From Methanobacteriota archaeon (GTDB taxonomy: Archaea; Thermoplasmatota; Thermoplasmata; Lutacidiplasmatales; UBA184), in assembly GCA_013290045.1 (NCBI GenBank), contig JABCYU010000002.1, positions 1 to 47,430 on the forward strand: a stretch of DNA of 47,430 nucleotides, read 5' to 3'. The position numbers and the translations under genes were made by a program. Positions 4,683-25,846 of this stretch are shown one piece after another (position 1 is the stretch's first letter; the number at the start of each line of letters is the position of its first letter). The notes below the pieces were generated by a model, which was not told the DNA's origin, ran no database searches, and was given only the letters and a program-made list of their open reading frames with translations.

Positions 4683-5252
4683 GTGACGCGCTCGCGGCTT
4701 CTCCGCCTCGGCCGGGTCAACGTCACCCGATGGTGCGATGCTCCGGAACCGGAGCACGAGGCCTACGTCACCCGGCTCTGGAACGGGGTGGTCCAGACAA
4801 ACCCTGACGGTACGCAGGAGGAGCGCGGCGGGATCAAGTACGTCGCCGATGCCAAGGGGCTGAGCGAGCAGGTCGTCCACATCTGGATGGATTTCGTCAG
4901 CTCGGGGCGCCGACCCCCGAGCATCCCCCGCCGATCGCAGGACCTGCTCCTCGAGCTCGCGAAGAAGGGAGGCATCGACCTCAGCCCCCGGCCCACCTAC
5001 GACATTCCGGCCAAACCCGGGTCCCCCTACGAACCGGCATTCCGCGTCTACACTCGGCTCCGAGCGGTTCTGGCCGTGGCCTCCCTCGCGCTGTGCGGGT
5101 TCCTCGCGGTCTCCTTCCTCGTCCCCCTCCCGTTCCCCACCGTCCCGATCGACCTCCCGGCCCTCGTGTCCTTCGTTGGGATCATCGTCCTCGCCGAGGT
5201 GTTCATCCTTTCCGACCAGAACGCGACGGTCCGGTTGGGGGCGGCCCACTGA
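4683..5252 (+). CDS. membrane protein, cytoplasmic N-domain plus 2 TM segments
   Basis: GTG start. The C-terminal half LRAVLAVASLALCGFLAVSFLVPLP...LVSFVGIIVLAEVFIL is hydrophobic. First gene of the plus-strand block. Confidence 0.75.
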   Translation: MTRSRLLRLGRVNVTRWCDAPEPEHEAYVTRLWNGVVQTNPDGTQEERGGIKYVADAKGLSEQVVHIWMDFVSSGRRPPSIPRRSQDLLLELAKKGGIDLSPRPTYDIPAKPGSPYEPAFRVYTRLRAVLAVASLALCGFLAVSFLVPLPFPTVPIDLPALVSFVGIIVLAEVFILSDQNATVRLGAAH

Positions 5253-7054
5253 TGCCCGGCCACACCGAGAATCTGTTCCCCTCTCGAAAAAAGAGCCGAA
5301 AGGCCTTGACCCCATTCGCCTCCGACGAAGAGTTCGTCAACTACGTCAACACGGGAGCGGTGTTCCCGGTCGGTTTCCATAAGCCGGGGGCGCCGGTAGG
5401 CCGGGACGGCGTGTTCCCGGATGCCACTCGTCTGCGGGTCGTCAAATCGAGGCCCGATCGATTCATCGCAGACGGCCGCGCAACGATCCCCGCGCCTGAG
5501 GACTTCGTCCGGGCGTTGCACGCCCGTATGCTCTGGGTGCAGTACGACGTCAGTCATCCCGACTCAGTGAGCATCTGCTGGGACCCAAGGTTTCGACGAG
5601 CCCGACTCCCCAGCGGTTTCGCCGCTGGCGCCACCGCGTCGATTGTCGCCCTCCTTTTCCTCCTCACGCTCCTACTGCCGCTGGCCGGAGCCAACGGGGT
5701 GACCCCGATCCCCCCGAACGCTGCTTCGACCCCCGCCCGCCAAGCAATTGCAGCGACCTCGCCTGGGGAAAGCGCCTACGTCGAGAGCTTCCTGCTTTCT
5801 CAGAAGCTGGTTCCCCAGTCTGTCCTCGCGTGCGCCGGAGCCTGCAGGGACCTCACCACGGGCTTTGCGAATGTTTCCGTCCCGACCAACTACCTCGGGT
5901 CCGGCTCGATCATCGAAGGTGCGGGAAACTATTGGATCAACGTCACGTCTGGTTGCGGCGGGAGCTGCCCCGCGTACTCGCTGACGTGCAACTCGGTCTC
6001 GTTCAACCCGACGGCCGGGCAGAGCCCGTGCTACGCCTCCGCGGTCAATTTCAACGGTGCCCAGGTCACGACCGTTCCGCAGTACAACGTCACCCGATTG
6101 GTGACCTACGCGATCCCCGAGGCGGCCTCGTGGATAGGGTCGTACAGTGGGGCTTCGCTCACGTCGTCCGTCACCTCGTTCAAGCCCGACGTCTTCACCT
6201 TCGGAGCTCCCGGCAAGCTGCTGGGGTACGACGTCCTAGCGATCTCCTGGGCCGTCCCGATGCCCTCCGGGACATTCGTCGCCTCGAAGACCACAGTCGA
6301 GTTCCTGAACACCAGCACCTTCCTCACCGGCGGGTCCCAATTCCTCCTGGGCTCGCAGTGGATCCTCATCCAGTGGGCACGGCTTCCCGTCCCAAGCTGT
6401 GTCACCTGCGACGTGCCCTACAGCCACGCGGAGGTCCAGAACTACCTATTCAACCTCTACTACGCGATTCCCCCACCGACGGCGGGGAATGGGATCCTTC
6501 CGCCGCCCTCGGTCAACTCAACCATCCCCCCCGGAATCATCCCGGGGCAGATCCCCGGGTTCGCCCCGATCGTGCTCGTCCTTTCGACTCCGCAGCAGAC
6601 CTCCCCGAACAACTGGAGCGAGGTCTTGGCGTGGCTGAACTACAACTGGTACGTCTCGGTGAGCGGGTTCGAGGTGGTATCGAGCTGGTTCGTCAAGGCC
6701 TCCAACGTCACCCTGTCCATCAATGGGGTCCCCCTTCCCAAGACCTCGTACACCGTCTCGAAAACCACGCTCTACGTCTACCCCGGTACGGTCTCAGTAG
6801 TGAACGGGACCTACGTCGCTCTAGGAGTCACCTTCCACTACTCCCCCAGCTTCGACCCGCTCGCGCCGGTAGGGGTCGTCGACGGGCTCCCAGTCACGCC
6901 GGGAGGAGTGATCGTGGCACTCGCCGTCGTCGCCACGATCCTGCTCGGCTACCGTGAGATCACTGACCCGGAGTTTCGGAAGTCCGGGAAAGCCAGCGCC
7001 GCCCTGGGGTCGCTGATGATGGGCCTGTTCGCCCTGGTGGTGCTCTACCTGTGA
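5252..7054 (+). CDS. large membrane-anchored, sequon-rich surface protein (600 aa)
   Basis: The ATG overlaps the upstream stop (TGATG). N-terminal TM IVALLFLLTLLLPLAGA and C-terminal TMs (VIVALAVVATILLGY, LGSLMMGLFALVVLYL). At least 8 N-x-S/T sites (NVS, NVT, NTS, NST, NWS, NGT). Confidence 0.85.
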   Translation: MPGHTENLFPSRKKSRKALTPFASDEEFVNYVNTGAVFPVGFHKPGAPVGRDGVFPDATRLRVVKSRPDRFIADGRATIPAPEDFVRALHARMLWVQYDVSHPDSVSICWDPRFRRARLPSGFAAGATASIVALLFLLTLLLPLAGANGVTPIPPNAASTPARQAIAATSPGESAYVESFLLSQKLVPQSVLACAGACRDLTTGFANVSVPTNYLGSGSIIEGAGNYWINVTSGCGGSCPAYSLTCNSVSFNPTAGQSPCYASAVNFNGAQVTTVPQYNVTRLVTYAIPEAASWIGSYSGASLTSSVTSFKPDVFTFGAPGKLLGYDVLAISWAVPMPSGTFVASKTTVEFLNTSTFLTGGSQFLLGSQWILIQWARLPVPSCVTCDVPYSHAEVQNYLFNLYYAIPPPTAGNGILPPPSVNSTIPPGIIPGQIPGFAPIVLVLSTPQQTSPNNWSEVLAWLNYNWYVSVSGFEVVSSWFVKASNVTLSINGVPLPKTSYTVSKTTLYVYPGTVSVVNGTYVALGVTFHYSPSFDPLAPVGVVDGLPVTPGGVIVALAVVATILLGYREITDPEFRKSGKASAALGSLMMGLFALVVLYL

Positions 7055-8424
7055 TCACGAAGCACGAGAAGCGTCGCCTGGTGCTCGACCTCCTCCTTCT
7101 CGGGGTTCTGGCCCTGCTCTTCGTCTCGTCCCTGGTATGGGCAGCGCAGCCGCACCCCCCATCCCTCACACCCTCGGCCATCGTTTCCCCCGCGGCCTTT
7201 GCCCAGCTCACTTCCACCGCGAACGAGAACCTGAAGCGGGTCACGGTATTCCACCAGAACAACTCGGGGGTCTTCGGCGGCAGCTCGACGATAGCGACCT
7301 TCCCGAACAACTTCACCTCGAACCTCTACAGCTCGATCGGGTCCTTCGTCGAGTCGTTCACGGTGACCACCTCCAACGGATACTTCCCGCAGGTCAACTT
7401 CACCCAGGGCAGTACGGTCGTGACCAACGCGACCGTGTCGCTCCCCTTTACGCTCCAGCCTCCAGCCTTCGCTCCCGCGCTCAAGATGCGCGTCGTGGAG
7501 ACGTACAGCTCGCAGGCCGCGCTCCCGGGCAACGGGGCGTACACGATCACGTCGCTCGCATCGCAGGCGATCATCTTCTCGCTCAACACCCAGTTCAACT
7601 GGACGCAGAGCGCGAGCGCGTTCGCAGGGACCTACACCCTGTCGGCCCCGACCGGGTATCAGCTGAACTCGTCGCAGGTCTTCCTCCCCTTCCCCGCCAC
7701 TGCGAACGTCAACTACAGCACCGTGAACGTCACGGTGAACGGCACCTCAATCCACACCTTCCAGGTCCAGACGGGAGGGGTCTACGTCAATTGGGCCGCG
7801 CTGGGAGCGGGCTACAACGCGACGATCCGTGTGGGCTTCCAGAGCCTGCCGACCATTACCGGCGTCGCGCCGGTCCTCACCGCGAGCGGGTACGCCCTCC
7901 TGAACCAGACCTACTTTCAACTCAACGTGAGCTGGTCGAACACTCTCGGCAACACCTACGCAGGGGTCTTCCTGATCGTCGCCAACTTCTCCGGCCAACT
8001 GAACCCGGCCACGATCACGGTCATCAACGGGAACAGGCTGCTCCCCTCGGGGGCGTCCTACCTCACGGGAAACACGCTCACCATCCTACCGCAGGTGGTC
8101 ACCGTCCCGGTCGCGGGAACCGTCTCGTTCTACGTGGACTTCCAGTTCTACGGGGCGCCCCCGAGGTACACGATCAACTCGGCCACTCCGTGCCTTACGC
8201 TCGGTGCCTCGGTCCTCACCTGCGGCGCCCTCACCGGTGCCGGCGCCCTGCTGATGCCGGTCGTCCTGCTCGTCGGCTGGCTATCCGACACGCGGCTCTC
8301 GAGGAACGCGGATGTCCGCATGTTCACCCGGGAGGCCTTCCGGAACAATCCCCGATTCACCTACTCCGTAGTCTTCCTGATGCTCGTCTTCGCCGCCGCG
8401 TATCTCCTGCTTCAGGTGATCTGA
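7051..8424 (+). CDS. membrane-anchored, sequon-rich surface protein (457 aa)
   Basis: GTGA overlap with the upstream gene. Signal/TM LVLDLLLLGVLALLFVSSLVWA, at least 12 sequons, and C-terminal TMs (GAGALLMPVVLLVGW, YSVVFLMLVFAAAYLLL). Confidence 0.85.
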   Translation: MITKHEKRRLVLDLLLLGVLALLFVSSLVWAAQPHPPSLTPSAIVSPAAFAQLTSTANENLKRVTVFHQNNSGVFGGSSTIATFPNNFTSNLYSSIGSFVESFTVTTSNGYFPQVNFTQGSTVVTNATVSLPFTLQPPAFAPALKMRVVETYSSQAALPGNGAYTITSLASQAIIFSLNTQFNWTQSASAFAGTYTLSAPTGYQLNSSQVFLPFPATANVNYSTVNVTVNGTSIHTFQVQTGGVYVNWAALGAGYNATIRVGFQSLPTITGVAPVLTASGYALLNQTYFQLNVSWSNTLGNTYAGVFLIVANFSGQLNPATITVINGNRLLPSGASYLTGNTLTILPQVVTVPVAGTVSFYVDFQFYGAPPRYTINSATPCLTLGASVLTCGALTGAGALLMPVVLLVGWLSDTRLSRNADVRMFTREAFRNNPRFTYSVVFLMLVFAAAYLLLQVI

Positions 8425-9186
8425 GTGGCGCGCTCGGTCACCGTCTCCGGTTACCTCCTCCGCCGGATTCCCCAGGTCGACGCCGGGCCTGCGAGGGGTC
8501 GGACCCTTGGAGTCGTGGGAGTCATCGTCCTCTTCCAGTTGGTCGTGCTGCTGCTCACCGTCAACCAGAGTCCGTTCCTCCCTGGCAATTGGGGGCCTCT
8601 CCTGCAGGCGGAGCAGGTCTACCTGACCATGGCCCTTTTCGCCGGGGCTGTCTTCTACTTCAACCCCAAGGTCCCGCTGATCAGCGAAGGGAGCATCGGC
8701 TGGTTCCTGACCCTCTACGTCGGCTTCGCGATGACCACCACGCTGGTCCTCTCCCTGATCTTCGTGCACAGCGGGGCCACCGTGCCCATCCCGGTCTCGG
8801 GAACGCAGAAGATCCAGACAGCGCTGTTCATCGGACTGTTCGTCGGCCCGGTCGAGGAACTGTTGTTCCGGGTGGTCCTCCCGCCCCTGTTCGTCGGAAA
8901 GCTGAAGGGGCAGGCCGCGGACGTCGCGGCGGCCGCCGGCTCCAGCATACTGTTCGGTCTCTTCCATCTGCCGGCCTACTCGGTGGCCACGGCCACAGTC
9001 TCCCCCCTCCAGCTGGGGTCGAACGTAGTCCTCGCCGTGCTGCTCGGGTTGCTGCTCTACATCATCTACCGGTCGGTCGGGTTCGGAGCGAACGTCGGAG
9101 TCCACGTCGCGTACGACCTGACCGTTCTCGGGGTCATCGGCGGACTGTCGGTCGCCGCGGCCCACCTGGGCTTGGTGCCGTTATGA
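8425..9186 (+). CDS. CPBP-family intramembrane glutamic protease (CAAX protease/Abi-like)
   Basis: Polytopic, with motifs GPVEELLFRVVL (EExxxR), SSILFGLFHL (FxxxH) and GVHVAYDL (HxxxD/N). Confidence 0.85.
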   Translation: MARSVTVSGYLLRRIPQVDAGPARGRTLGVVGVIVLFQLVVLLLTVNQSPFLPGNWGPLLQAEQVYLTMALFAGAVFYFNPKVPLISEGSIGWFLTLYVGFAMTTTLVLSLIFVHSGATVPIPVSGTQKIQTALFIGLFVGPVEELLFRVVLPPLFVGKLKGQAADVAAAAGSSILFGLFHLPAYSVATATVSPLQLGSNVVLAVLLGLLLYIIYRSVGFGANVGVHVAYDLTVLGVIGGLSVAAAHLGLVPL

Positions 9187-9809
9187 CCCGGTCGGTGCGC
9201 ATCCGCCTTCCCGTCAGCGAGCGCGTTGACGAGCTCCTCGAAAAGTACCGGCACGTGTCGCAGCAGGACCCGCGGGCGTACCTACCCACCGGGAGGAATC
9301 GGGTCAAGCTGATCGAGACCGCCCTCAGGTACAGCGCCCGGTATCACCGTGAGGAGGATCCGACGTTCGCCCCCAACGGCAGATATCTCGACATCCATCT
9401 GAAGTCCCCCGAGCTCCTCGGAATGACCCCGAGGGCCCTCGGCGCCCACCTACAACGGGAGATCCTCGAGTTCGACGGCAGGTTTCGCCCGCCGTCGCCC
9501 TCCACCGACCTCGACACGCTGGAGCTGCTCCTGGCCGATGAGACGCTCTGGGCGATCCGGGTTCGGGCCTTCCATGAAGGGCGCTCCGTCCAGGACCTGC
9601 TCACCGATGTCGCCCACCGGAGCCTGCTCGAGATGCGGCTGATGTATGAACGCGCCGGAGCTCGTCGCGAGCTGGTCCCGGTCAAGATCTCCTCCTCTAC
9701 GTTCCGCGAGGTGAACCGCATGGTTCACGCCGTCGGCGGTCACCCATACTTCGCTCTCCAACACCACATGACGTTGAAGGTCGGGGCGACCCAGGCGGTG
9801 CCGGCGTGA
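9183..9809 (+). CDS. hypothetical cytoplasmic protein, possibly two RHH-like repeats
   Basis: MTRSVRIRLPVSERVDELLEKY... and later LELLLADETLWAIRVRAFHEGRSVQDLLTDVAHRSLLEM. ATGA overlap. This is the real 3' part of spurious track ORF 7137..9809. Confidence 0.7.
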   Translation: MTRSVRIRLPVSERVDELLEKYRHVSQQDPRAYLPTGRNRVKLIETALRYSARYHREEDPTFAPNGRYLDIHLKSPELLGMTPRALGAHLQREILEFDGRFRPPSPSTDLDTLELLLADETLWAIRVRAFHEGRSVQDLLTDVAHRSLLEMRLMYERAGARRELVPVKISSSTFREVNRMVHAVGGHPYFALQHHMTLKVGATQAVPA

Positions 9810-10768
9810 GGCCGGCCCTTCTCTCCCTCATCGCGGTCGTCGGGCTCCTAGTCTACCCCGTGTCGATGGCCGCACTCACTGCGGCCACTCCGCCCGCGAC
9901 CACCTGGGAGGTGGACTTCCCGGCGACCAAGATACCGTCGGGTGCGCCGGCCGAGATCACCGTCCTGGGGCCGGCGCATGCCCGAATTCTGGTGACCGTC
10001 ACCGCACCGCCGTGGAACGGGACGTCCCCAGTGTTCACCGGAGACTTCACCCTACCTAACGCGACGCCGGGGAGGCAGGCGTCCATCAACGTGACCATCG
10101 CCACCGGGCCCCTCCCGACCGCCGAATACCAGGTGCAGGTCCAGTATCAGGGGCTCTTGGCTGCGAGCGGTTGGTTCTGGATAGTCCCGCCGGTCAACGA
10201 AACGGTCCTCAACGCCACTGTCTCCCAGGTCTACGCCCAACTCATCGTCGACCAGCAGATCCTTTTGAACGACCGCCAACAGATCGTTCAGGCGCAGCTG
10301 GTCCAACAGATGCAGTGGTGGGCCTGCATCCTCTCGAGCGCCGTTTCGCTCGTTGGGATGTCCATCGCCGTGACCTTGACCCGCCAACCGAAGGGGGAGG
10401 CTGCACGCTCGTTCGAAGGCGCCTGGCACTCGGCATGGTGGCGGCACCCCGGGACCATCCAGGGGTCGATACGTGGGAACCAACCCATTCCCGAGATGGC
10501 CGTTCCCGCGGAGGAGATCTGGTACTCGACCATGTGCTGGACATGTCGAAACCTTCGGTACACGGAGCCCCAGATCATCGTCCACATCAATGCGAACCAC
10601 TTCGACGTCGTTGGCGACGCCGGGCCGAAGGCGGGCAAGCACTACTGGAAGGACCCCGTCGCGGTGAGGGCGGCCCAGCTGGCGCCCACGACAGACGAGC
10701 ATGGCCGAGCCTTGGGCCGGAAGGTGCGCAAGGGTCTCGTGATTCCCTTCCGGCAGGGGGAGAACTGA
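9806..10768 (+). CDS. type-I membrane protein: signal peptide, sequon-rich ectodomain, TM, cytoplasmic C2H2-like zinc-finger tail
   Basis: Signal LLSLIAVVGLLVYPVSMA, TM WWACILSSAVSLVGMSIAVTL, and tail CWTCRNLRYTEPQIIVHINANH. Confidence 0.8.
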   Translation: MRPALLSLIAVVGLLVYPVSMAALTAATPPATTWEVDFPATKIPSGAPAEITVLGPAHARILVTVTAPPWNGTSPVFTGDFTLPNATPGRQASINVTIATGPLPTAEYQVQVQYQGLLAASGWFWIVPPVNETVLNATVSQVYAQLIVDQQILLNDRQQIVQAQLVQQMQWWACILSSAVSLVGMSIAVTLTRQPKGEAARSFEGAWHSAWWRHPGTIQGSIRGNQPIPEMAVPAEEIWYSTMCWTCRNLRYTEPQIIVHINANHFDVVGDAGPKAGKHYWKDPVAVRAAQLAPTTDEHGRALGRKVRKGLVIPFRQGEN

Positions 10769-11722
10769 ATGAACGCAGTAGGGACGCCCTTCCGCCCCAC
10801 TTACGAGCACTTCAACTGGCCGTTGCTCTACATTCTCGTCGTCGTCGCGACCGGGGTCATCGCGGGAGTCTACACCGCCTACGACTACCCGAACTGGTCG
10901 ACCGCGATCAATGCGACCACGGTGATTGTCCTATCGGCGCTGGTCGTCCTGTGCTTCCTGCCCGCCATCCTGGGTCTCACGGCGTACATCCGCATCCACA
11001 CCCCGATGCTGCAGACGGCGACCAAGGTCTACCGGCTCTCCAGGTTTGCCCCGTTCGACCTCCCGGTCATCAGTTACCAGGTGACGCCGGAGGCCGTTGC
11101 TGCGGTCGCCGGACGACTTCCTCCGGCGGCGGCCGAAAGCGCGCTCAAGTCCGGGCACCGAGACTTCTCGGCCAAATGCCTGAAGCTAGGCGGTCTGATC
11201 ATCCCCGGATTCTTTCTTCCGCCCGAAGACTACTTCCTGATCTACTTCCCCGGCGACCTTTGGCAGACCGGGGACAACATCACCGGAGACGGATACTTCA
11301 CCCCCAAATCGACCCGGACGATCAACCACCACCACATACCGGAACTGTGGCTCGAGGAGCTCCGGAAGCAAGGGTTCAAGCCCGGCAAATCCACATTGCT
11401 CGTCACCACCGAGCCGCCCTCGTCATGGAGTGATTACCTCCGATACAACGTGGAGAAGGTGCGCCGGTACATCGGGGACACTTCCCATGACCCCGTCACC
11501 GGAGGTGCGACGGCCGATGCGTTCATGATGGCTTGGCTCGGCTCCGAGGGGGAGAAGCACCGGATCCAAGCCGAGCTGCAGGAGGCCCATAACGAGGTCC
11601 TGGACCTCCGGCGAGCGGGGGCGGCTACGGCGCGGCGCAAGGCCGAGCTCGCGGGGGGGAGGGCCGACATGCCACCTAACCTCGGGGCCATGTCCGAGCG
11701 GCCCGGGAGCTTCGACACGTGA
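10769..11722 (+). CDS. membrane protein (2 N-terminal TM) with a large cytoplasmic domain
   Basis: WPLLYILVVVATGVIAGVY and VIVLSALVVLCFLPAILGLTAYI. The ATG directly follows the upstream TGA. Confidence 0.8.
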   Translation: MNAVGTPFRPTYEHFNWPLLYILVVVATGVIAGVYTAYDYPNWSTAINATTVIVLSALVVLCFLPAILGLTAYIRIHTPMLQTATKVYRLSRFAPFDLPVISYQVTPEAVAAVAGRLPPAAAESALKSGHRDFSAKCLKLGGLIIPGFFLPPEDYFLIYFPGDLWQTGDNITGDGYFTPKSTRTINHHHIPELWLEELRKQGFKPGKSTLLVTTEPPSSWSDYLRYNVEKVRRYIGDTSHDPVTGGATADAFMMAWLGSEGEKHRIQAELQEAHNEVLDLRRAGAATARRKAELAGGRADMPPNLGAMSERPGSFDT

Positions 11723-12405: not shown

Positions 12406-12410
12406 CGAAC

Positions 12411-13721: not shown

Positions 13722-13769
13722 GTTATGGTGTGAGTTTGCCGAAAATCGGCATTTTGACCCATAAAACCA

Positions 13770-13785
13770 CGCGTATATTCACATA
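13770..13785 (+). promoter_or_regulatory. TATA-box-containing promoter motif CGCGTATATTCACATA (copy 2)
   Basis: Identical to 4493..4508. It lies in the 102-nt gap before 13824..14852. The TATATT box ends 44 nt before the ATG. Confidence 0.6.
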
Positions 13786-13823
13786 CCAAAACCTGCGGTC
13801 TTCACCTGAGGGCGACCTCAGCG

Positions 13824-14852: not shown

Positions 14853-14960
14853 GGAGGGAACCGTCGAACGAACCGCAGCAACGGAGGGGGATGAGGACCG
14901 AGCCCCCGGCTCGGCTCGGTCCGACCCGTCCAGCGCTGCAGGGCCGAACCAGGGGGGAGG

Positions 14961-18338: not shown

Positions 18339-19297
18339 TGGTCGGAATCGGGACCCCGAACGTCGTCCTCTCGTTGATCGGGTTGAGCATCCTGGGCGCG
18401 GGACTCTTGGGCGCAGCGGGAGTCGGACCGATTGCCCTCGCTGGGCTCGGCCCGGCTCAGCTTTCAGTGGGGATCGTGGCCCAGTTCTCCTGGAAGACGG
18501 CGAACCTCACTGCGATCGTCACGCCGAACAATGTGCTACCGGCCGGGGGCTCGAACTCGGTTCCCGGTTGTCCGTCGTTCTCGAGCACGATCTACTGGGG
18601 TGACGGCGCCGTCGTGCCCGCCAACGCCGCCGCTTCGTACACGCACACCTACATCCAGAACGGTATCTACACGGTCTCCGAGACGGTCCTCGAGACTCTC
18701 TGCACCATCCCGAAGAGCACGAGCCAGGTCTCCGTTTCCGCCCAACTCACCGCCCCATCGGCGACAAGCGGGACGGCCAGCAGCGGTCTCGGAAAGACCC
18801 CATCGAGCGTCGCCCCGTCGTTCTCGGTGCAGACCTCGAACCTCAACGTCACCCTGCGAGACACCTCAGTCGCGACGAACGAGTCGATCAAGGCCGTGAC
18901 TTTTGCCTTCGGTGACGGGGCGATGTCGACCCCTGGTGCGGGAGGTCTGGTCACAAGCCACGTCTACACGGCCGCAGGGACCTACCGAGTCCTCGAGACC
19001 GTCACCGGGAGCGCGCAGGTCTACTGCTCAAACTGTGGGGCGGGAACCTACCCGATCTTCACCACAGCGACGAACGTCACGGTCGTTGTCGGCGTCTCCT
19101 CGGCCGCCACCGTCGTAGGCCCGTCGCCGCCCCCGGCGGCCAGCGGGGCGTTATCCGGACCCGTCCTTGCGGCCATCTTCGGAGGTGGGGCCCTTGCGGG
19201 TCTTCCTCTGGTCCTCCGGTCTCGATTCGGCACGGCTCTCGGACTTTCCGGGGCCGCGGGAGTCATCGGATTCGCGTTCGGCGTGGGGTGGATCTGA
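18338..19297 (+). CDS. membrane-anchored protein with two PKD-like domains
   Basis: TIYWGDGAVVPANAAASYTHTYIQNGIYTVSETV and VTFAFGDGAMSTPGAGGLVTSHVYTAAGTYRVLETV (WxxGDG...HxYxxxGxYxV). It has both N- and C-terminal TM segments. Confidence 0.85.
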   Translation: MVGIGTPNVVLSLIGLSILGAGLLGAAGVGPIALAGLGPAQLSVGIVAQFSWKTANLTAIVTPNNVLPAGGSNSVPGCPSFSSTIYWGDGAVVPANAAASYTHTYIQNGIYTVSETVLETLCTIPKSTSQVSVSAQLTAPSATSGTASSGLGKTPSSVAPSFSVQTSNLNVTLRDTSVATNESIKAVTFAFGDGAMSTPGAGGLVTSHVYTAAGTYRVLETVTGSAQVYCSNCGAGTYPIFTTATNVTVVVGVSSAATVVGPSPPPAASGALSGPVLAAIFGGGALAGLPLVLRSRFGTALGLSGAAGVIGFAFGVGWI

Positions 19298-20343
19298 TGA
19301 ATCCCATCACGACCTCCTTCCTCGTTGTCGGCTTCCTCGGTCTCTTCCTTGGGATTGGAGGGAGCGTCGGCATTGTGCCTCTGGCGGTGTTCAACTGCAG
19401 CACCTGCTACGTCCCAGGAACGAACTCTGGGACCGTCCCAGGTATCCCCACGTGCAGCGGCACGAACACGATCTGCCCCAACGTGGTCTTCCTCGAGAAG
19501 GGGTACAAGCTCGTTGGCTGGATCAACGGTACCTATGCGCTGGGCGTTACCATCGACAACAACCCATCGGCGTACGACACCTCCTACGTGCAGTTCAGCC
19601 CGTCGACCGGGAAGGGTTGTGGCACCAATGGGGGGACCTGCCTGTTCTCGTTCAACGTCAGTTCCATTCGTCAAACTGGGGGCGCTTTCTACGAAGCGTT
19701 CAGCTACACATTCCCCGGTGGCTGGACCTACCCCGGGACTTTCCCCGGCTCGTACAACCTCAACACCCAGATCATCTACACCCAAACCTCCCTTGGCGTG
19801 ACTTCGAAGGTCTCCCTCTACACAGTGCCGCAGCCGATCTCAATACCCGGAAACCAGACCTTCAGCAACTGCGGTAACTCCTGCTTCTCCCTGTCCGCAG
19901 GGTTCTCCTTCTCCCTGTCTGGCTTGTTCGGTGCGTTCAACGACACGTCAGCCGTGACGGGCGGGTCAGTGGCCAACGCCACCTGGTCGTTCGGAGACGG
20001 ATCCACCGCGACCGGGACCCGCGTGACCCACGTCTTCACCGCGGTGGGGCAGTATCGAGTGTCCGAGACCGTGGTGGCGCAGAACACGGGTGGCGTTCAG
20101 CAGCTCTTCGCCACCACGACACTACCGGTGAACATCACCCTCTCCCAGGTGGGACCCCTGATCAAGGGCCAGACGAACCCTACGACGTCCGGGTCATTGG
20201 GATTTTTCCACCCGTCACTGGTGGACGGAATCCTCATTGGCGCCTCCGTGGCCCTCATTCTAGCCGCGTGGCTGCCCAAACACCCGGTCGTAATCCTTGG
20301 GGCTGTCGCCGCTGGCGGGACTCTGGGGGGGCTGCTCCTTTGA
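19297..20343 (+). CDS. membrane-anchored surface protein with a PKD-like domain
   Basis: ATWSFGDGSTATGTRVTHVFTAVGQYRVSETV. N-terminal anchor SFLVVGFLGLFLGIGG and a C-terminal TM. ATG 19297 (TGATG overlap) is preferred over track GTG 19288. Confidence 0.85.
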   Translation: MNPITTSFLVVGFLGLFLGIGGSVGIVPLAVFNCSTCYVPGTNSGTVPGIPTCSGTNTICPNVVFLEKGYKLVGWINGTYALGVTIDNNPSAYDTSYVQFSPSTGKGCGTNGGTCLFSFNVSSIRQTGGAFYEAFSYTFPGGWTYPGTFPGSYNLNTQIIYTQTSLGVTSKVSLYTVPQPISIPGNQTFSNCGNSCFSLSAGFSFSLSGLFGAFNDTSAVTGGSVANATWSFGDGSTATGTRVTHVFTAVGQYRVSETVVAQNTGGVQQLFATTTLPVNITLSQVGPLIKGQTNPTTSGSLGFFHPSLVDGILIGASVALILAAWLPKHPVVILGAVAAGGTLGGLLL

Positions 20344-20684
20344 TGGGCAGGCTCGACCCGCGACCGAAGCCCGCCTACGTCGACGTCCCGATGGATTACG
20401 ACACGTGGGAACGCCTCCGGGAGGGCACCGGATGGGACCACGAGAAGGCGATCGAGAAGCTACACGCTCGAGCCGTGGAGCAGCTGCGCGCATCGCGACC
20501 CAACTGGAAGGAGGACGAGATCCACCACGTCGCCCAGGAGACGATGTTCAGGGACTCGTGCCGGGCGGCCTACTATCAGGCGCTGACGGAGATGCAGAAG
20601 CGCCGGCGGCTGCCGAAGACCCTCCGCATTACGTTCACTCGGCCCGGAACCCGGGACGACCGTGAAAGGGAGGTAGGATCGTGA
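20343..20684 (+). CDS. hypothetical soluble protein (113 aa)
   Basis: The ATG overlaps the upstream TGA. MGRLDPRPKPAYVDVPMDYDTWERLREGTGWDHEKAIEKL... Confidence 0.7.
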   Translation: MGRLDPRPKPAYVDVPMDYDTWERLREGTGWDHEKAIEKLHARAVEQLRASRPNWKEDEIHHVAQETMFRDSCRAAYYQALTEMQKRRRLPKTLRITFTRPGTRDDREREVGS

Positions 20685-21355
20685 GGACGTATCTGCTGGT
20701 GTTGGCGATTGCGATCAGCGGAGTGCTCGGGGTCCAGATGTTCCTGGCGGAGGGCGCGCCAGCCAACCCCACGATGTCGCTTCAGAGCGGCCTGACCCCC
20801 GGCGTCGCCCAGCAGGCCCAAGTGGTCGTGAGCTCCCAGATGTTCAGCGTCCAGCCGCCCAACTCGATCGACCAACTCGGGGCGAAGGTGGTCTACAGCG
20901 CCTTCCAGAACGGGATCCAGGTGGCGTTCCAGCAATCCCAGGCGCTCGGGATCACCGGGGGGTCGGGAAGCCTATACCTGCTCACTGCGACCTTACCGAT
21001 CAGCCTCTCCGCGCTCTGCAGCGGATCCCAGTGCGGCGGGTACATCGAGAACCTGACGGTGACGGCCCAAGTGGTCGTTCCGACCTACGACGGGGTCTAC
21101 ACCAGCGCACCCATCACCGTGACCTTCCTGAGCGCGGGAAGCCTTCCCTCGGGCCTCCAGCCGACGTACGGCCCCACCACCCAGCCACCGGCCTCGATGA
21201 ACCAGTTCAACATCAATCTCTGGGGCGCCCTGACCCTCGCCGTAGCGCTTGACCTCGCGCTGGCCGCGGCGATCACCAAGCACCCGGCGTTCGTCCTGCC
21301 GTGGGGACTGGCCGTGGCAGTCCTCGCTTTCGAAACTGTCCTGTGGGGGCTCTAA
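20681..21355 (+). CDS. secreted protein with a C-terminal membrane anchor (224 aa)
   Basis: GTGA overlap. Signal MRTYLLVLAIAISGVLGVQMFLA. C-terminal TMs LWGALTLAVALDLALAAAI and WGLAVAVLAFETVLWGL. Confidence 0.8.
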   Translation: MRTYLLVLAIAISGVLGVQMFLAEGAPANPTMSLQSGLTPGVAQQAQVVVSSQMFSVQPPNSIDQLGAKVVYSAFQNGIQVAFQQSQALGITGGSGSLYLLTATLPISLSALCSGSQCGGYIENLTVTAQVVVPTYDGVYTSAPITVTFLSAGSLPSGLQPTYGPTTQPPASMNQFNINLWGALTLAVALDLALAAAITKHPAFVLPWGLAVAVLAFETVLWGL

Positions 21356-24300
21356 GCCGACACTTCCTTCTCCGGGGGTCGGGCGCCCTTAGTGCGGTGG
21401 CTCTGGCGAGCGTGAGCCTTCTTCTCGTATCGGGTTGCCATCTCCCCACCACTCCCACTGCGGTGACGATCGACGTCCCACGGTTGGCGCCTCCTGCTCA
21501 CCCTGCCAATGCTCTGGAGGCCTCGACGAAACCCCCCGCCGAGGTCTCCTTCCCCAACACGCACGTGACCCCGCTGGCTGGTGGGACACCCCAGTGGGCC
21601 ACGATCTGCGCCACCGGCGGGGCCTCCTCCGGGTTCATTTGCCCGAACCAGCCGAGCAAGGTCTGGGGATCCGGCCTCGTGTGGGACGCGGCCGACAACT
21701 ACGTGATGCACTTCGGCGGGGCGACCACCGCTACGGGGGCGAACAAGCAGGAGACCTACCGGTGGGCGAACGGGGCCTGGACCAACCTCGCTCCCGGAAC
21801 CCAACCGCAGAACCGCGCCAACTTCACGATGGTCTACGACACCGCCGACTCCTACGTGTTCCTGTTCGGCGGGTACATCACGGGAGCCGGCACGGGAGAC
21901 TGGGGCGACTCGTGGAAGTACGTCGGCGGAACCTGGACGAAGCTCTCGCAAACCACCGCGGGCCTGAACGCCCGATCGGGAATGTGCGGCGTCTACGTCC
22001 CGTTGGTCAGCGGCCACGGGGGGTACGTCCTGATGTTCGGTGGGAAGTACAACGGGTCGGCCGCCGGGAACTATCCGACGGACACGTGGAAGTTCGTCGG
22101 CGGCAGCTGGACGAACATCACGGCGAGCGTCGGATCCGCACCCGCCGGTAGGGTCGGAGGATCCTGCGCGTACGACTCGGTCGACAACTACGTAGTCCTG
22201 TTCGGCGGGGTCGGATCGGGAGGAACCGAGACCAACGACGTCTGGAAGTTCGACCCGGCTGGAGGCACGACCGGGACGTGGACGCAGCTCTCGGCGAACG
22301 GAGCCGGAGGCAAACCGAGCGCTCGAGCCTACTCCGAGCTCGTCTACAACTCGTTCTCTCAGAAGGTCGTTCTCAGCCAGGGTGCTCGGGGCACGATCGC
22401 CACTATGGGAGCGATCCCGTTCGATTTCTGGTCCTACGTCGGGGGAACCTGGACCAACCAGACCGCCGTCTGGAACGTCATCGGGGCGAATCCCCCGGCG
22501 ATGTACGGGAACACGGTCGCCGACGTCAACGCGTACGGCTACTCGATGTACTACGGCGGGATGAAGGCCGCCGGCGGCACGATCAACGGGACGTTCGCTC
22601 TCGGCAACATCCTGACATCCCAAGGGACGGCGTCCAACCCCGGGGAGATGGCAACCTCCACGGTCGTGAACTTCTGGAACAACGTTACCGGCGGGTCGGG
22701 GACCTACACCTACGTCTACCACGGCCTGCCGACTGGATGCGCTACGACGAACTCGAGCCACTTCACGTGCACCGCGACCACGGCCGGAGTGTTCATGGTC
22801 AACTGCACGACCACCGACACCGGCGGCCAGTCGACGAACAGCAACCAGATCAAGGTGGTCGTCGACTCGAGCGCGAGCGTCGCGGGATCCCTGAACGCCG
22901 GGACCTTCCTCTACAATCCTCCCCCGTTCTTCTTCGGGGCCGACATTTGGTCGAACATGACCTCGGGGATCGGCCCGGGAGCGGTCGCCAACCTGCTGAA
23001 CGCCACCCCGATCAAGCTGCTGCACTTCTACGGCGACTTCGACAAGACCAACATGAGCATCGGCTACCAGGGACAGGGGTACGGGTCGAACGGGGTCGCC
23101 CACATTCCCGTGTGGGTCACCTACAACATGAGCAACTACCGTGCCCTCTGCCAGTTCATCGGTTGCACGGCGTGGATCTCCAACCCCTCCCAGACGAACG
23201 ACAGCGGAGCCGAAGTGGCCGAGATCAACCAATGGGAAAGCCGGTGGGGGTTCACCCCTGCCTTCCTCACGATGGGGGTAGAGATCTCGGCCTGGAACCA
23301 CTTCAACATCCCCTACACGAGCTGGTCGGGCGGCGACGCGAGCACCCCGACGGGGGTTCAGTACTCTCTTGAACTCCAGCACATGATCCCGCTCATCCGC
23401 GCCGTCGACCCGAACCTCAAGTTCCTCGCTCAGTTCATCGGCGGGACCGTCACCAACGGGTCGATGGCCCAATGGATCCAGAACATCTCGAAGAACCTGT
23501 GCGGCGGTGCCAACGGCGTCCAGGGCGTGGGGCTGGACATCTACCCGCAGCAGGGCAACGGATTCGGCAACGTCAATCTCTACCAGTTCTTCAACAACCT
23601 CTCAATCGTCTCGAGCCGGATGGCCGCCATCCAGGGCCAGGTGGCCCTGGGCAACGCGGCCTGCACCTCGATCCAGTCGATCGTCGGTGAGAACAACGCG
23701 GGGAACGGGGGGAGCTCGTGGGCGCCCTACATGCAGGCGTATCCGGACGTGCCGTGGGTCGCCTCGGCGGTCATCCAGAGCTTCCTGAAGCAGGTCTACA
23801 TCTACAACACGTGGTCGGCGACGGAGACGGCCAACCTCGGCGGTGGGAACGGGGGGACGTTCTCCATGATCAACATGACGACGGGGGCGACCAAGCCCCT
23901 CTACGGACTCTACTCGGGGATCCTCTCCCACATGTCGTTCGGGTCGATCTACAAGGCCCCGGTGACCACGGCGATGAGCGGCATCTACTCCGTCGAAGGT
24001 TTCACCCCCGGCAACTCGATCTTGGTCGACAACACGAACACCACCGTCTCGCTGGTGTTCAGCCCGACGAACTTCCCGACGTCCGAAGGGGTCACGACCT
24101 ACTCCGACTCACAGGCGAACGGGATCCAGACGGCAGCTTACGGGCCCGGTGCGGTCCCCGCCACGTTCACCATCCCTCCAATGGGGGTCCTGCTACTCAA
24201 CCAGGGGACCGGAACCGTTGTCGGTGGAGTGGGCCCCGGTTCGAGCCCGATCGCATCTCCCACGAACCTCACCGTCACCGGGGTCACCTTCAACACGGTC

Positions 24301-24681
24301 TCCCTGGCGTGGTCCGGCGTTCCGACGACCGCCACGAACGTCACGGTCTACTGGGGACCGTCCTGCGTAACTTGGGCGAGCTCTGCCGTCCTTGGGCCGG
24401 TGACCAAGTTCACCGTCACCGGGCTGGCCCCAATCAACCGGTACTGCTTCGCGGTCTCCGCCTCCGCCCCGAACGCAGGCAACTCTCCGCTGAGCTCCAC
24501 CGTCACGGCGACCACCCTACCCAATCCGATCCCACTTCCGGGCCTGCCCTTCGATAGTTGGAAGGCGGTCGGTGGCGGCCTCGCCCTCGTCGGGTTCACG
24601 ACCATGGTCATCCCGAATCCACGGCGTTGGTTGGGCGTTCTCCTGTTCATGTTCGGGGTCATTTCGGTGGTGTTCCTCTGA
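21343..24681 (+). CDS. giant surface lipoprotein candidate: lipobox, Kelch-type beta-propeller repeats, PKD/Ig-like domain, large central domain, FN3 domain, C-terminal TM
   Basis: LLLVSGC lipobox. Repeats YVMHFGG / YVFLFGGY / YVLMFGGK / YVVLFGGV are each followed by W(K/R)(Y/F)xxGxWT. FN3: PTNLTVTGVTFNTVSLAWSG...VYWG...FTVTGLAPINRYCFAVSA. C-terminal TM WLGVLLFMFGVISVVFL. The start is uncertain (GTG 21301, 21343 or 21397). Confidence 0.9.
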   Translation: MGALSRHFLLRGSGALSAVALASVSLLLVSGCHLPTTPTAVTIDVPRLAPPAHPANALEASTKPPAEVSFPNTHVTPLAGGTPQWATICATGGASSGFICPNQPSKVWGSGLVWDAADNYVMHFGGATTATGANKQETYRWANGAWTNLAPGTQPQNRANFTMVYDTADSYVFLFGGYITGAGTGDWGDSWKYVGGTWTKLSQTTAGLNARSGMCGVYVPLVSGHGGYVLMFGGKYNGSAAGNYPTDTWKFVGGSWTNITASVGSAPAGRVGGSCAYDSVDNYVVLFGGVGSGGTETNDVWKFDPAGGTTGTWTQLSANGAGGKPSARAYSELVYNSFSQKVVLSQGARGTIATMGAIPFDFWSYVGGTWTNQTAVWNVIGANPPAMYGNTVADVNAYGYSMYYGGMKAAGGTINGTFALGNILTSQGTASNPGEMATSTVVNFWNNVTGGSGTYTYVYHGLPTGCATTNSSHFTCTATTAGVFMVNCTTTDTGGQSTNSNQIKVVVDSSASVAGSLNAGTFLYNPPPFFFGADIWSNMTSGIGPGAVANLLNATPIKLLHFYGDFDKTNMSIGYQGQGYGSNGVAHIPVWVTYNMSNYRALCQFIGCTAWISNPSQTNDSGAEVAEINQWESRWGFTPAFLTMGVEISAWNHFNIPYTSWSGGDASTPTGVQYSLELQHMIPLIRAVDPNLKFLAQFIGGTVTNGSMAQWIQNISKNLCGGANGVQGVGLDIYPQQGNGFGNVNLYQFFNNLSIVSSRMAAIQGQVALGNAACTSIQSIVGENNAGNGGSSWAPYMQAYPDVPWVASAVIQSFLKQVYIYNTWSATETANLGGGNGGTFSMINMTTGATKPLYGLYSGILSHMSFGSIYKAPVTTAMSGIYSVEGFTPGNSILVDNTNTTVSLVFSPTNFPTSEGVTTYSDSQANGIQTAAYGPGAVPATFTIPPMGVLLLNQGTGTVVGGVGPGSSPIASPTNLTVTGVTFNTVSLAWSGVPTTATNVTVYWGPSCVTWASSAVLGPVTKFTVTGLAPINRYCFAVSASAPNAGNSPLSSTVTATTLPNPIPLPGLPFDSWKAVGGGLALVGFTTMVIPNPRRWLGVLLFMFGVISVVFL

Positions 24682-24710: not shown

Positions 24711-24854
24711 GTGCCAGGGATCTATGCCACGGTTCTACTCATTTTCCTCGGCGCAACGTCCCTAGAATACGGACTCATCGCTCAATCCTGGCTCGCCGAC
24801 GGCGCAGGGGGGGTCCTTCTGGTGGCCGCAATCGCGGTGGGGTTGTTCCTCTGA
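24711..24854 (+). CDS. small 2-TM membrane protein
   Basis: GTG 24711 gives VPGIYATVLLIFLGATS...GGVLLVAAIAVGLFL. An alternative CTG 24678 overlaps the upstream TGA (CTGA) and would add a basic N-region KLRPNLR. Confidence 0.5.
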   Translation: MPGIYATVLLIFLGATSLEYGLIAQSWLADGAGGVLLVAAIAVGLFL

Positions 24855-25171
24855 AGCGCCGGCACCTGCTCGAGGTCCTGCTACTCGTCCTCGGCCTCTT
24901 GGCCATTGGCCTGGCTTCACATCCTCAGGCGTCGCCCCCGACGAGTTCCAGTCTCCGAGTGGCCTACTGCAACCCCCAGCCCTGTACGAACACGAGCTCG
25001 AGCACCCCCTACTACCAGACCCAGGCGGCGTGGGCCCAGCTCGGCAGCGAGATGATCCTCGGGGGCCTGATTCTGGTGGCCCTGTTCGCCACCGTCTACC
25101 GGCACCTTGCCCTCGGCATCTTCGGGGGCGTGGTGATGGTCGTCGGGATCCTGATCTACATTTTCCTGTGA
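24851..25171 (+). CDS. small secreted/membrane protein (106 aa) with an apparent non-canonical CTG start
   Basis: (L)KRRHLLEVLLLVLGLLAIGLASHP is a complete signal-like N-terminus. No in-frame ATG/GTG/TTG preserves it. The CTG overlaps the upstream TGA. C-terminal TMs are present. Confidence 0.55.
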   Translation: MKRRHLLEVLLLVLGLLAIGLASHPQASPPTSSSLRVAYCNPQPCTNTSSSTPYYQTQAAWAQLGSEMILGGLILVALFATVYRHLALGIFGGVVMVVGILIYIFL

Positions 25172-25177
25172 GGGCAG

Positions 25178-25456
25178 ATGAACGATAAGGGAAGGAGCTG
25201 GAGGCGGAACCGGAGAGCTGCACTCAGCGTCGTTGCGGGTCTCGAGAGCCTCATCCTCCTTACCGCGGTCTTCGCAATCATGTTCGTCGCCCAGCCGAAG
25301 AGCAACGCGATCACCATCTTCATTTTCGTGCTCGTGTCGATGGCGCTCGGACTGATCACCATCGTCCCGCACGTCCTGGGCCTCATCGCGGGCGGAGCGA
25401 TCGGGATCGCCTCTGTGATGTTTCTGCTCGCCAACACCTGGTGGTTCCACCTGTAG
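25178..25456 (+). CDS. small 3-TM membrane protein (92 aa)
   Basis: Basic N-terminus KGRSWRRNRR, then three hydrophobic spans. Confidence 0.75.
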   Translation: MNDKGRSWRRNRRAALSVVAGLESLILLTAVFAIMFVAQPKSNAITIFIFVLVSMALGLITIVPHVLGLIAGGAIGIASVMFLLANTWWFHL

Positions 25457-25468
25457 GAGGCCCCGGAC

Positions 25469-25846
25469 GTGGTCGGGGCCCAGGACTTCCTCGCAGCTCC
25501 CGCCCTAAACGAGTTCGCTCATTTCGCCATCGGGGTAGTCGTCGTCTTCATCGCGATCGTGCTGATCCGGGGTGGCTGGTTCCCCATCGGCGCCGTGCTG
25601 CTCGCTGGGTTCGTCGCTTTCGTCTCGATCAAGGAGTTCTACATCGACGAAACGACCTCTTGTTTCGTCTCCCTCTGCGGGTACGGCCAGAGCGCAAACG
25701 GGGCTAGCGTTGACGCGGCGTTCTATCTCTTCGGAGGGGTCGCCGGGGCTTCGACCGGCGTTTTCTTCCCGAGCCCCTACGCGATCGGCTTCGCGTCGGT
25801 CTCCGTGGGAGTCGTAGGGCTCATGCTGCTGGCGGGCCTCATCTGA
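25469..25846 (+). CDS. polytopic membrane protein (125 aa)
   Basis: GTG 9 nt after AGGAGG. Four hydrophobic spans. Last gene of the plus-strand block. Confidence 0.75.
   Translation: MVGAQDFLAAPALNEFAHFAIGVVVVFIAIVLIRGGWFPIGAVLLAGFVAFVSIKEFYIDETTSCFVSLCGYGQSANGASVDAAFYLFGGVAGASTGVFFPSPYAIGFASVSVGVVGLMLLAGLI

Follow-up and report, generated by a model that had tools for sequence, protein, structure and literature searches.

We analysed a 47,430-nucleotide (nt) stretch of contig JABCYU010000002.1 from a Methanobacteriota archaeon assembly (GCA_013290045.1), hereafter the window, and in particular a block of genes at positions 4683-25846 that an initial annotation had described as about 27 genes encoding mainly membrane and secreted proteins. 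All of the convincing genes in this interval lie on the plus strand, tightly packed into two units as that annotation proposed, and neighbouring genes mostly overlap by 1 or 4 nt or sit 0-24 nt apart. Judging from open reading frame (ORF) structure and the GC content at third codon positions (GC3), the block is real but the gene count is lower, at 23 firm genes plus two doubtful small ORFs (24711-24854 and 24899-25171) with ambiguous start codons. The 102-nt gap at 13722-13823 was likewise described correctly, but it is not the only sizeable one, as a gap of 108 nt (14853-14960) lies 3' of the first gene in unit 2. The window has a GC content of about 64% throughout, with the block and its flanks uniform at 0.62-0.67, and the called frames of the block are marked by high frame-specific GC3. 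Because these frames also have syntenic homologues in independent contigs for almost every block product, at 20-68% amino acid (aa) identity, the coding is real and not a product of chance. The block most likely builds a particle or a transfer apparatus for archaeal mobile elements of an undescribed family. Its genes, designated g1 to g25, are as follows.

4683-5252, plus strand: g1, 189 aa, cytoplasmic N-terminal domain followed by two transmembrane (TM) segments
5252-7054, plus strand: g2, 600 aa, glycoprotein-like; cytoplasmic N-terminal domain, TM segment, large Cys- and sequon-rich ectodomain, C-terminal TM pair
7051-8424, plus strand: g3, 457 aa; signal or anchor, Thr/Ser/Asn-rich ectodomain with 13 sequons, C-terminal TM pair
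8425-9186, plus strand: g4, predicted CPBP (Rce1-like) intramembrane protease, PF02517
9183-9809, plus strand: g5, 208 aa, cytoplasmic
9806-10768, plus strand: g6, 320 aa; signal, ectodomain, TM segment, cytoplasmic tail with a C2H2-type motif
10769-11722, plus strand: g7, 317 aa; two N-terminal TM segments, then a cytoplasmic domain of about 240 aa
11719-12405, plus strand: g8, 228 aa, acidic, cytoplasmic
12411-13721, plus strand: g9, 436 aa, probable divergent ATPase of the HerA/FtsK superfamily (RecA fold, additional strand catalytic glutamate or ASCE class)
13824-14852, plus strand: g10, 342 aa, first gene of unit 2; N-terminal TM helices, all-beta ectodomain of about 210 aa
14961-15215, plus strand: g11, 84 aa, helical, cytoplasmic
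15224-15652, plus strand: g12, 142 aa, cytoplasmic, DUF5771 match
15652-15939, plus strand: g13, 95 aa, polytopic membrane protein
15955-16416, plus strand: g14, 153 aa; signal peptide, secreted all-beta domain, invariant Cys at the end
16441-16695, plus strand: g15, 84 aa, membrane protein
16692-18338, plus strand: g16, 548 aa; signal, ectodomain with 12 Cys, C-terminal TM pair
18338-20343, plus strand: g17 (319 aa) and g18 (348-351 aa); signals, PKD-domain ectodomains, C-terminal TM pairs
20343-20684, plus strand: g19, 113 aa, charged, cytoplasmic
20681-21355, plus strand: g20, 224 aa; signal, ectodomain, C-terminal TM pair
21343-24681, plus strand: g21, giant and variable surface protein of about 1112 aa; signal, Kelch propeller, unassigned region of about 450 aa, fn3, C-terminal TM segment
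24711-24854, plus strand: g22, small hydrophobic ORF, doubtful
24899-25171, plus strand: g23, small hydrophobic ORF, doubtful
25178-25456, plus strand: g24, small hydrophobic ORF
25469-25846, plus strand: g25, small hydrophobic ORF

By a Kyte-Doolittle scan, 19 of the 25 products have one or more TM or signal-like segments, close to the earlier estimate of at least 20, and by hydropathy the remaining six (g5, g8, g9, g11, g12 and g19) are cytoplasmic. The layout previously noticed in the large proteins, an N-terminal anchor, an ectodomain and C-terminal TM segments, is found by the same scan in seven of them (g2, g3, g16, g17, g18, g20 and g21). The ectodomains had also been described as dense in N-x-S/T sequons, and the block does carry 77 of these against about 49 expected from shuffling, two of them invariant in the g10 family. 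Pfam recognizes g4 (CPBP), g12 (DUF5771, on which a literature search found nothing), g17 and g18 (PKD) and g21 (Kelch and fn3), while g9 gives matches at the P-loop level and reaches the threshold of no Pfam family; no further block protein is recognized by Pfam. The two enzymes named by the initial annotation, a CPBP protease and a P-loop NTPase, were therefore correctly called, but the PKD, Kelch and fn3 domains had been overlooked. The same annotation had reported no capsid, portal, terminase, pilin or type IV secretion system (T4SS) signature, and neither Pfam nor PHROGs places any such family in the block; profile, structure and database searches for canonical capsid, tail and conjugation proteins, the check it had called for, also found none.

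The g4 product scores 49.6 bits to PF02517, against a cut-off of 22.4, and carries the catalytic motifs EELLFR (EExxxR), FGLFH (FxxxH) and HVAYD (HxxxD). These are kept in the homologues from contigs L003 and L010, and thus in three lineages, and by its sequence g4 appears to be an active CPBP/Rce1-like protease.

For the ATPase g9, a word-indexed protein search returned only the self-match, and an exhaustive HMMER search of 1.84 billion representative proteins found 16 relatives. In these the Walker A motif, an invariant Asn, Walker B (DE) and an RK..Q segment are invariant or nearly so, which bears out the earlier P-loop NTPase call, and the longer relatives have a C-terminal extension that looks helix-turn-helix-like (HTH-like) by eye. 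AlphaFold models were obtained for g9 and g10. That of g9 (AF2; mean predicted local distance difference test score, pLDDT, 80; predicted template modelling score, pTM, 0.68) has a RecA-like core, and Foldseek matched it to RecA, Rad51, DnaB and B204 of Sulfolobus turreted icosahedral virus (STIV). It superposes on STIV B204 with a template modelling score of 0.53 on the target and a root-mean-square deviation of 4.9 Å, and a search of BFVD matched FtsK, Zot and A32-like packaging ATPases. The fold match is nonetheless generic, since the matches to RecA, DnaB and Rad51 are equally good. Hhalign aligned the g9 profile to the second, HerA-like ATPase encoded in the window at 84.5% probability over 80 columns running from Walker B to RK..Q. 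On this evidence, we consider g9 probably a very divergent member of the HerA/FtsK division, whose enzymes form rings, at membranes or capsid vertices, through which DNA or polypeptides are moved. A relationship to VP8 of Halorubrum pleomorphic virus 1 (HRPV-1) was considered and rejected, as only the P-loop aligned (29 columns, 35% probability).

To place the module among its relatives we compared the genomic contexts of the ATPase relatives and ran all-against-all BLASTP. The module is syntenic in at least seven lineages of contigs from metagenomes and metagenome-assembled genomes (MAGs), at 20-68% aa identity, and those relatives that carry a name are 'Euryarchaeota archaeon' MAGs. One such MAG (L003) has g1-g20 entire and in the same order, at 28-68% identity, and three further contigs (L010, L011 and L012) have the whole block, order unchanged, at 20-49%. 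The other 'Euryarchaeota archaeon' MAG, L019, has BLASTP homologues of g6, g9, g10, g12, g14, g15, g16, the PKD proteins and g19, with genes sized like g5, g7 and g8 at matching positions. L006 and L013 retain a core of g5-g8, the ATPase, a gap of about 100 nt, g10 and small genes, and L014 and L015 have BLASTP homologues of g6, the ATPase, g10, g12 and g13, again with genes of g5, g7 and g8 size at matching positions. The last two (Logan SRR21679858 and SRR21679874) are contigs of 71% GC, as opposed to 62-66% in the other relatives, so the family spans hosts of differing base composition.

The small envelope proteins (g10, g13, g14 and g15) have diverged less than the ATPase. The best conserved across distant lineages is g14, which in L019 is 50% identical where the ATPase is 24% and g10 33% identical. 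The families are small, with 7 clusters for g10 and 18 for g14 among 5.8 billion proteins. Pattern scans of 185,579 GTDB species genomes found neither the ATPase nor the g10 family, the ATPase scan being swamped by P-loop patterns, and a metagenome pattern scan with the ATPase was swamped in the same way and found no relative. Among 72,556 plasmids (PLSDB), tblastn gave no real match for the ATPase or for nine concatenated block proteins. The module is the only part common to all of the related elements, including a small 25-kb contig that carries little else, and its neighbours differ from contig to contig. Since all the related elements share it, the module behaves as their defining core and not as cargo or a housekeeping locus.

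Within unit 1, g1 is 34% identical to its L003 homologue and g2 38% identical over its full length, while g3 reaches 55% in the comparison with L003 and 39% in another. The g5 protein has homologues in L003, L010, L006 and L013 and no Pfam match; three strand-helix motifs, resembling ribbon-helix-helix (RHH) motifs by eye, suggest a regulator or DNA binder. A homologue of g6 is found in each lineage where its position is visible, and the zinc-finger motif CxxC...HxxxxH in its tail (at about 10535-10600, plus strand) is conserved in four lineages. The gene for g8 is invariably directly upstream of that for the ATPase, a position kept in L006, L013, L014 and L019.

Unit 2 opens with g10, which is among its best conserved genes and is a candidate for the major surface subunit. 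The g10 model is weak (pLDDT 62) and shows N-terminal helices and an immunoglobulin (Ig)-like beta sandwich. We considered g10 as a jelly-roll capsid protein, but this low-confidence model matched no capsid protein and the idea is unsupported. No counterpart of g11 was seen in other lineages, whereas g19 is kept in all of the large ones and g20 is 68% identical to its L003 homologue. Conserved motifs mark g13 (AHPYGLA and QLSLSVVH) and g15 (LTHFG). The position of g21, occupied here by a Kelch protein, holds DUF2341/fn3 giants in other lineages, and g21 is a candidate adhesin or receptor-binding protein. We had also considered that a shared 'TM-K/R-H-P-TM' hairpin might link g13, g15, g18, g20 and the C-terminal anchors by paralogy, as versions of a small capsid-like protein. 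This was dropped: a hidden Markov model of the g13 family detected no other block protein at a significant score, and a comparison of the g13 and g15 family profiles showed no similarity. Nor are g13 and g15 relatives of VP3 from Sulfolobus spindle-shaped virus 1 (SSV1), with hhalign probabilities of 2% and 0.6%, respectively.

The two units are accompanied by the following signals.

4493-4508, plus strand: promoter-like box CGCGTATATTCACATA, upstream of unit 1
13733-13755, plus strand: hairpin TGCCGAAAATCGGCA followed by TTTT, after the ATPase gene; terminator-like, at the end of unit 1
13770-13785, plus strand: promoter-like box CGCGTATATTCACATA, second copy; the g10 start codon is 38 nt downstream

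The 16-mer of the box occurs exactly twice in the window, once before each unit, against 0.03 copies expected, and TATA-like boxes (TTTAAAA and TTTAAATA) are found at the equivalent position in L003 and L006. A hairpin similar to the terminator-like one, CCGAAAATCGG, lies in the same place in L010 and L012. Between the first box and g1 there is a leader of about 175 nt (4509-4682; the L003 counterpart is at 2075-2251) with a GC hairpin, GGGAAAGGCG-GGCGGAC-GCGCCTTTCCC, at 4531-4558. In L003 the stem is changed (GGTGAGGCG...CGCCTCACC) and the GGCGGA loop is the same, and the hairpin may be a regulatory RNA or an operator. The leader also contains a complementary CCACCGC(C/T)CGCC segment 3' of the hairpin and, immediately 5' of the start codon, a conserved TCGTAC..CTATTAA box. 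From the boxes, the terminator-like hairpin and the leader, we infer that the block comprises two co-regulated transcription units.

The remainder of the window bears on the nature of the element in which the block resides, and its features are listed here.

1-336, minus strand: 5' third of a tyrosine integrase gene (PF00589; 315 aa in the full contig), which continues left of the window
337-4469, mostly minus strand: small genes between integrase and block, probably a regulatory or early region
337-591 and 588-818, minus strand: two C2H2 zinc-finger proteins, next to the integrase
3804-4469, minus strand: zinc-ribbon/TM protein
25839-44942, minus strand: convergent module of the same element, with the gene content given below
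35086-35172 and 35184-35269, plus strand: tRNA genes for Ile(UAU) and Arg(UCU), Rfam 51.7 and 55.5 bits
36781-38745, minus strand: HerA-like ATPase, 654 aa by ORF and 616 aa as called
40186-42080, minus strand: GT1/GT4-type glycosyltransferase and FkbM-type methyltransferase
43491-44942, minus strand: phosphoesterase
45380-45407, minus strand: right-end repeat, a 26/28-nt direct-repeat copy of the 5' part of tRNA-Arg(CCU); putative attachment site
45613-47430, plus strand: primase-polymerase (Prim-Pol) gene, PF09250, E 4e-37

The window is nearly identical to part of a metagenome contig (ENA ERZ27253656, k141_3681129) and is also found on a 48-kb JGI contig. Beyond the integrase, at about window position -637 to -711 (11229-11303 of contig L002), is a tRNA-Arg(CCU) gene, followed by host-type genes, and in the full contig the integrase gene is intact next to this tRNA. 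At the other end, an independent contig from a different sample (L017, SRR7093792) breaks inside the right repeat, at 45393. The repeat and this break together indicate an element of about 46 kb that includes the whole block, and on this evidence we take it to be a tRNA-targeting, tyrosine-recombinase integrated element. The window itself differs from the ENA contig by T for G at positions 8 and 12. The first of these changes creates a TAG at 7-9 that would stop the integrase after codon 109, while the ENA and JGI copies are intact at 315 aa; the integrase may have been inactivated in one population, or the difference may be an artefact of the sequence. Small zinc-finger proteins such as those next to the integrase are common in archaeal viruses.

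The convergent minus-strand module encodes a DUF1828 protein, a serine resolvase, an HNH nuclease, a deoxynucleoside monophosphate (dNMP) phosphatase (phrog_318, 3e-58), N6/N4 and C5 DNA methylases, a DUF5131 protein, the HerA-like ATPase, an ASCH protein, the FkbM-type methyltransferase, the glycosyltransferase and the phosphoesterase. The HerA-like ATPase matches phrog_2666, 'terminase large subunit' (8e-19), and is 33% identical over 69% of its length to the 'hera helicase' of an uncultured tailed phage (L021, MW202482). An ASCH/YqfB-like gene is near the HerA gene in both genomes (36781-40229, minus strand, in the window; two genes downstream in the phage), and this arrangement points to a common module for DNA metabolism more than to an ATPase of conjugation.

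The variable regions of the element's two tRNA genes contain an identical 14-nt hairpin, GGUCCGGGAGGACC; Ile and Arg tRNAs do not usually have a long variable arm. The two genes are antisense to the 3' part of an ORF called at 35002-36027/36165 (minus strand). We looked to codon usage for support of these tRNAs, but the signal was too weak to use: ATA accounts for 19 of the element's 510 Ile codons and for none of the 98 in host flank genes, and AGA is not enriched. The phosphoesterase, of the phospholipase C/acid phosphatase family (PF04185, 3e-60), is just inside the right repeat, has the highest GC3 of the minus-strand genes, and looks more like host-derived cargo than an element core gene. 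The glycosyltransferase and methyltransferase could modify the sequon-rich block proteins or the host envelope.

The initial annotation had taken the block for part of an archaeal mobile element, an envelope, virion or DNA-transfer apparatus that can be assigned to no described system, and this proposal is supported by the flanking integrase and tRNA and by the 'Euryarchaeota archaeon' MAG relatives. The conserved module, the probable HerA/FtsK-superfamily ATPase and the virus-like companion genes sharpen it, and leave both a virus and a transfer apparatus in play. Our leading interpretation, held tentatively and at a little below an even chance, is that the block is the morphogenesis ('late') module of a temperate, capsid-less enveloped virus of an uncultured euryarchaeon, integrated beside tRNA-Arg(CCU). 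Somewhat more cautiously still, the element might found a virus family of its own, temperate and infecting uncultured Euryarchaeota. The enveloped virion of such a family would have a new architecture and morphogenetic module, assembled without any known capsid fold from orphan families (g10, g13, g14, g15 and anchored glycoproteins) and filled by a very divergent, membrane-docked HerA/FtsK-type ATPase.

Under such a scheme both units, preceded by the same promoter-like box, would be switched on together. Unit 1 would supply the large glycoproteins g2 and g3, which the g4 protease may trim, or it may act on other anchored proteins. The same unit would provide a membrane-docked DNA-handling set consisting of g5 (a possible DNA binder), g6 (with its zinc-finger tail), g7, g8 and g9, in which g9 would move the DNA of the element at the membrane into the nascent particle. 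Unit 2 would then furnish the particle surface, made up of the conserved g10, g13, g14 and g15 and the anchored PKD and Cys-rich ectodomain proteins g16-g20, with g21 serving as a fast-evolving giant adhesin for host recognition. The product would be an enveloped, capsid-less virion, pleomorphic or vesicle-like, released without any known capsid fold.

Several lines of evidence favour a virus. The context is that of a mobile element: to the left are an integrase and a tRNA, and to the right is the 26/28-nt attachment-like repeat, within which an independent contig ends. At least seven lineages keep the module together, with differing flanks. Conservation is higher in the surface and membrane proteins than in the ATPase, as the L019 identities illustrate, a pattern typical of virion shells and not of conjugation systems. 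At the end of unit 2 one giant protein replaces another from lineage to lineage (Kelch or DUF2341), as a host-range determinant might do. The RecA-like ASCE core of g9 matches STIV B204, A32-like ATPases, FtsK and Zot. The companion genes are of virus-typical kinds: tRNAs for AUA and AGA, two DNA methylases, the HNH, DUF5131 and dNMP phosphatase genes, and a phage-like HerA. Finally, one 16-nt box precedes both units.

Other observations count against a virus. No capsid, nucleoprotein or fusogen was identified, and the virus-like companion genes could equally belong to a plasmid. Searches of IMG/VR with three queries (the ATPase, g10 and g14 families) found no relative, tblastn with the ATPase and nine concatenated block proteins found no match in the GenBank phage and archaeal virus sequences, and the 20 block proteins tested have no credible match in PHROGs. 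The sole PDB profile match of g9 beyond the P-loop is to the region of VirB4 from Walker B to RK..Q (4ag5), with a non-significant E value of 0.12, and the weak g10 model resembles the Ig-like folds of pilins and adhesins (CooA, CfaB and FimH) and no viral protein. In addition, the Prim-Pol gene is about 200 nt outside the putative right repeat. It runs off the right end of the window, and two independent assemblies both stop inside it. A second integrated element may sit in tandem at this tRNA site, or the right end of the first may lie further out, so the limits of the element described here, and with them its replication module, are provisional.

The strongest competing explanation, possible though rather doubtful in our estimation, is that the block serves an integrative plasmid in DNA transfer, through a mating pore or pilus of conjugation-like type or through plasmid vesicles. 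In this case g9 together with g6-g8 would export DNA, g10 and g14 would form a surface filament or adhesin, and g21 would mediate cell-cell contact. The failure to find a capsid protein, the VirB4 region as the best non-P-loop match of g9 and the pilins and adhesins as the top fold matches of g10 all fit this explanation, as do the integrase, the resolvase and the nearby Prim-Pol, a combination seen in plasmids. The architecture moreover closely parallels the conserved region of pT26-2 (PMC6972569). On the other hand, no relaxase, VirD4/TraG-type coupling protein, VirB6 or pilin was found by Pfam anywhere in the window, and the second ATPase is a phage-type HerA with a nearby ASCH gene and not a coupling protein. 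The small surface proteins exceed the ATPase in conservation, the reverse of the situation in T4SSs. The 72,556 plasmids searched yielded no match, and the tRNA and nucleotide-modification genes are more typical of viruses.

We regard as unlikely the proposal that the block is cargo, that is, a cell-surface remodelling or adhesin island of glycoproteins, PKD and Kelch adhesins and a processing protease that benefits the host through biofilm formation, attachment or superinfection exclusion, with the ATPase serving in secretion or assembly. Its recognizable domains (PKD, Kelch, fn3 and DUF2341) are indeed typical of cellular surface proteins, a CPBP protease would suit a dedicated processing or sorting system, and a glycosyltransferase and a methyltransferase are also on the element. 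The module alone, however, is common to all of the related elements, even the 25-kb contig; it always includes cytoplasmic parts that look related to DNA, namely the possible RHH protein, the zinc-finger tail and the HerA-type ATPase, which in its longer relatives has the extension that looks HTH-like by eye; and it is not in the GTDB species genomes scanned. Cargo thus fits the distribution poorly, and so does an ordinary chromosomal envelope locus near an integrase and tRNA by coincidence or through an adjacent unrelated element, the check for which the initial annotation had also asked and which is highly improbable: GC is uniform across block and flanks, and the L019 module is about 3 kb from host-type genes with no integrase in the stretch compared, but the module is rare and patchy (billions of proteins yielded 16 ATPase relatives, 7 g10 clusters and 18 g14 clusters, and the scans of GTDB representatives yielded none), lies between attachment-like repeats with mobile and virus-like genes, and has neighbours that differ in each related contig.

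We next compare the locus with known systems. The HK97 capsid, portal, large terminase and tail genes of the Caudoviricetes are absent among the window ORFs scanned with Pfam and PHROGs, and the only 'terminase' label in the window is the PHROG match of the HerA-like ATPase. The Fuselloviridae do not match either, as neither g13 nor g15 is VP3-like and the integrase gene is not split by integration. With the PRD1/STIV viruses there is some likeness in the ATPase, since the g9 fold is compatible and superposes on STIV B204 and A32-like ATPases, and the packaging ATPase of the STIV/PRD1 lineage works at the membrane with small TM proteins. No jelly-roll capsid protein was found here, and g10, encoded beside the ATPase, models as an Ig-like sandwich (pLDDT 62).

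The Pleolipoviridae, for example HRPV-1, share with the block a cluster of membrane proteins, a spike glycoprotein with a signal and a C-terminal anchor, a P-loop NTPase and the lack of a capsid protein, and they include temperate, integrating members. They differ in genome size (7-17 kb as opposed to about 46 kb here) and in gene order and number, and neither nine block proteins nor the ATPase had a tblastn match in a phage collection that includes HRPV-1, a family otherwise marked by a cluster of VP4 spike, VP3 membrane protein and VP8 NTPase genes. T4SSs and the Ced/Ted systems likewise combine a HerA/FtsK-superfamily ATPase with small hydrophobic and polytopic membrane proteins, and there is the weak VirB4-like signal in g9. 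Compared with T4SSs, the block has a shorter ATPase, of 436 aa, that has diverged more than its surface proteins, and large glycoproteins dominate; VirB4/TrbE, VirD4/TraG, VirB6, pilin and relaxase all fall below the Pfam threshold, CedA and TedC not having been compared directly. Overall, the sequence comparisons point to a module of the mobile-element particle or transfer type that is built almost wholly from orphan protein families and has the diagnostic genes of none of the virus groups compared here, nor those of a T4SS.

Two plasmid systems also resemble the block in general organization. The haloarchaeal plasmid pR1SE, of about 50 kb, can integrate and encodes many membrane proteins found in plasmid-carrying vesicles, with no capsid. 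By that description the present element resembles it as an integrating element rich in membrane proteins and with no capsid protein found, although the host of pR1SE is a halophile with acidic proteins; no match to it was found in a plasmid collection in which its presence is unconfirmed.

A close parallel is pT26-2, whose conserved region comprises 12 syntenic orphan genes, 9 of them encoding proteins with TM helices, and one ATPase that resembles VirB4, HerA and B204 (PMC6972569). The family, which consists of integrated and free plasmids with hosts among the Thermococcales and Methanococcales, has a core of seven genes (t26-5p, 6p, 7p, 11p, 13p, 14p and 15p) whose products have no homologues outside the family, and the module has been proposed as a novel mechanism of DNA or protein transfer (PMC6972569). 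Like pT26-2, ours is a tRNA-integrating archaeal element in which syntenic orphan genes, mostly for TM proteins, accompany a single HerA/VirB4/B204-like ATPase. The tblastn search of plasmids showed no sequence relationship to pT26-2, the presence of pT26-2 in that collection being unconfirmed. Unlike pT26-2, the block is about twice as large, with about 25 genes as opposed to 12, and includes a CPBP protease and giants with PKD, Kelch and fn3 domains; the tyrosine integrase is of the conventional, non-splitting type; and the element is found in high-GC uncultured Euryarchaeota together with phage-like genes.

Whether membrane-protein-rich core modules such as that of pT26-2 make virions, vesicles or mating pores is a long-standing puzzle. 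The element group described here has apparently been missed by current virus-detection resources, since none of it was found in IMG/VR or PHROGs, and if particles were shown it would found a new virus family. It offers a clear integration site, a candidate co-regulated operon pair and candidates for each of the parts: g9 with g6-g8 for a membrane DNA pump, g10, g13, g14 and g15 for the major subunits of a particle or filament, g4 for a processing protease and g21 for host recognition. Set beside pT26-2, the locus is a second, unrelated and larger example of such a module, with at least seven syntenic lineages, enough for alignments of every one of its proteins.

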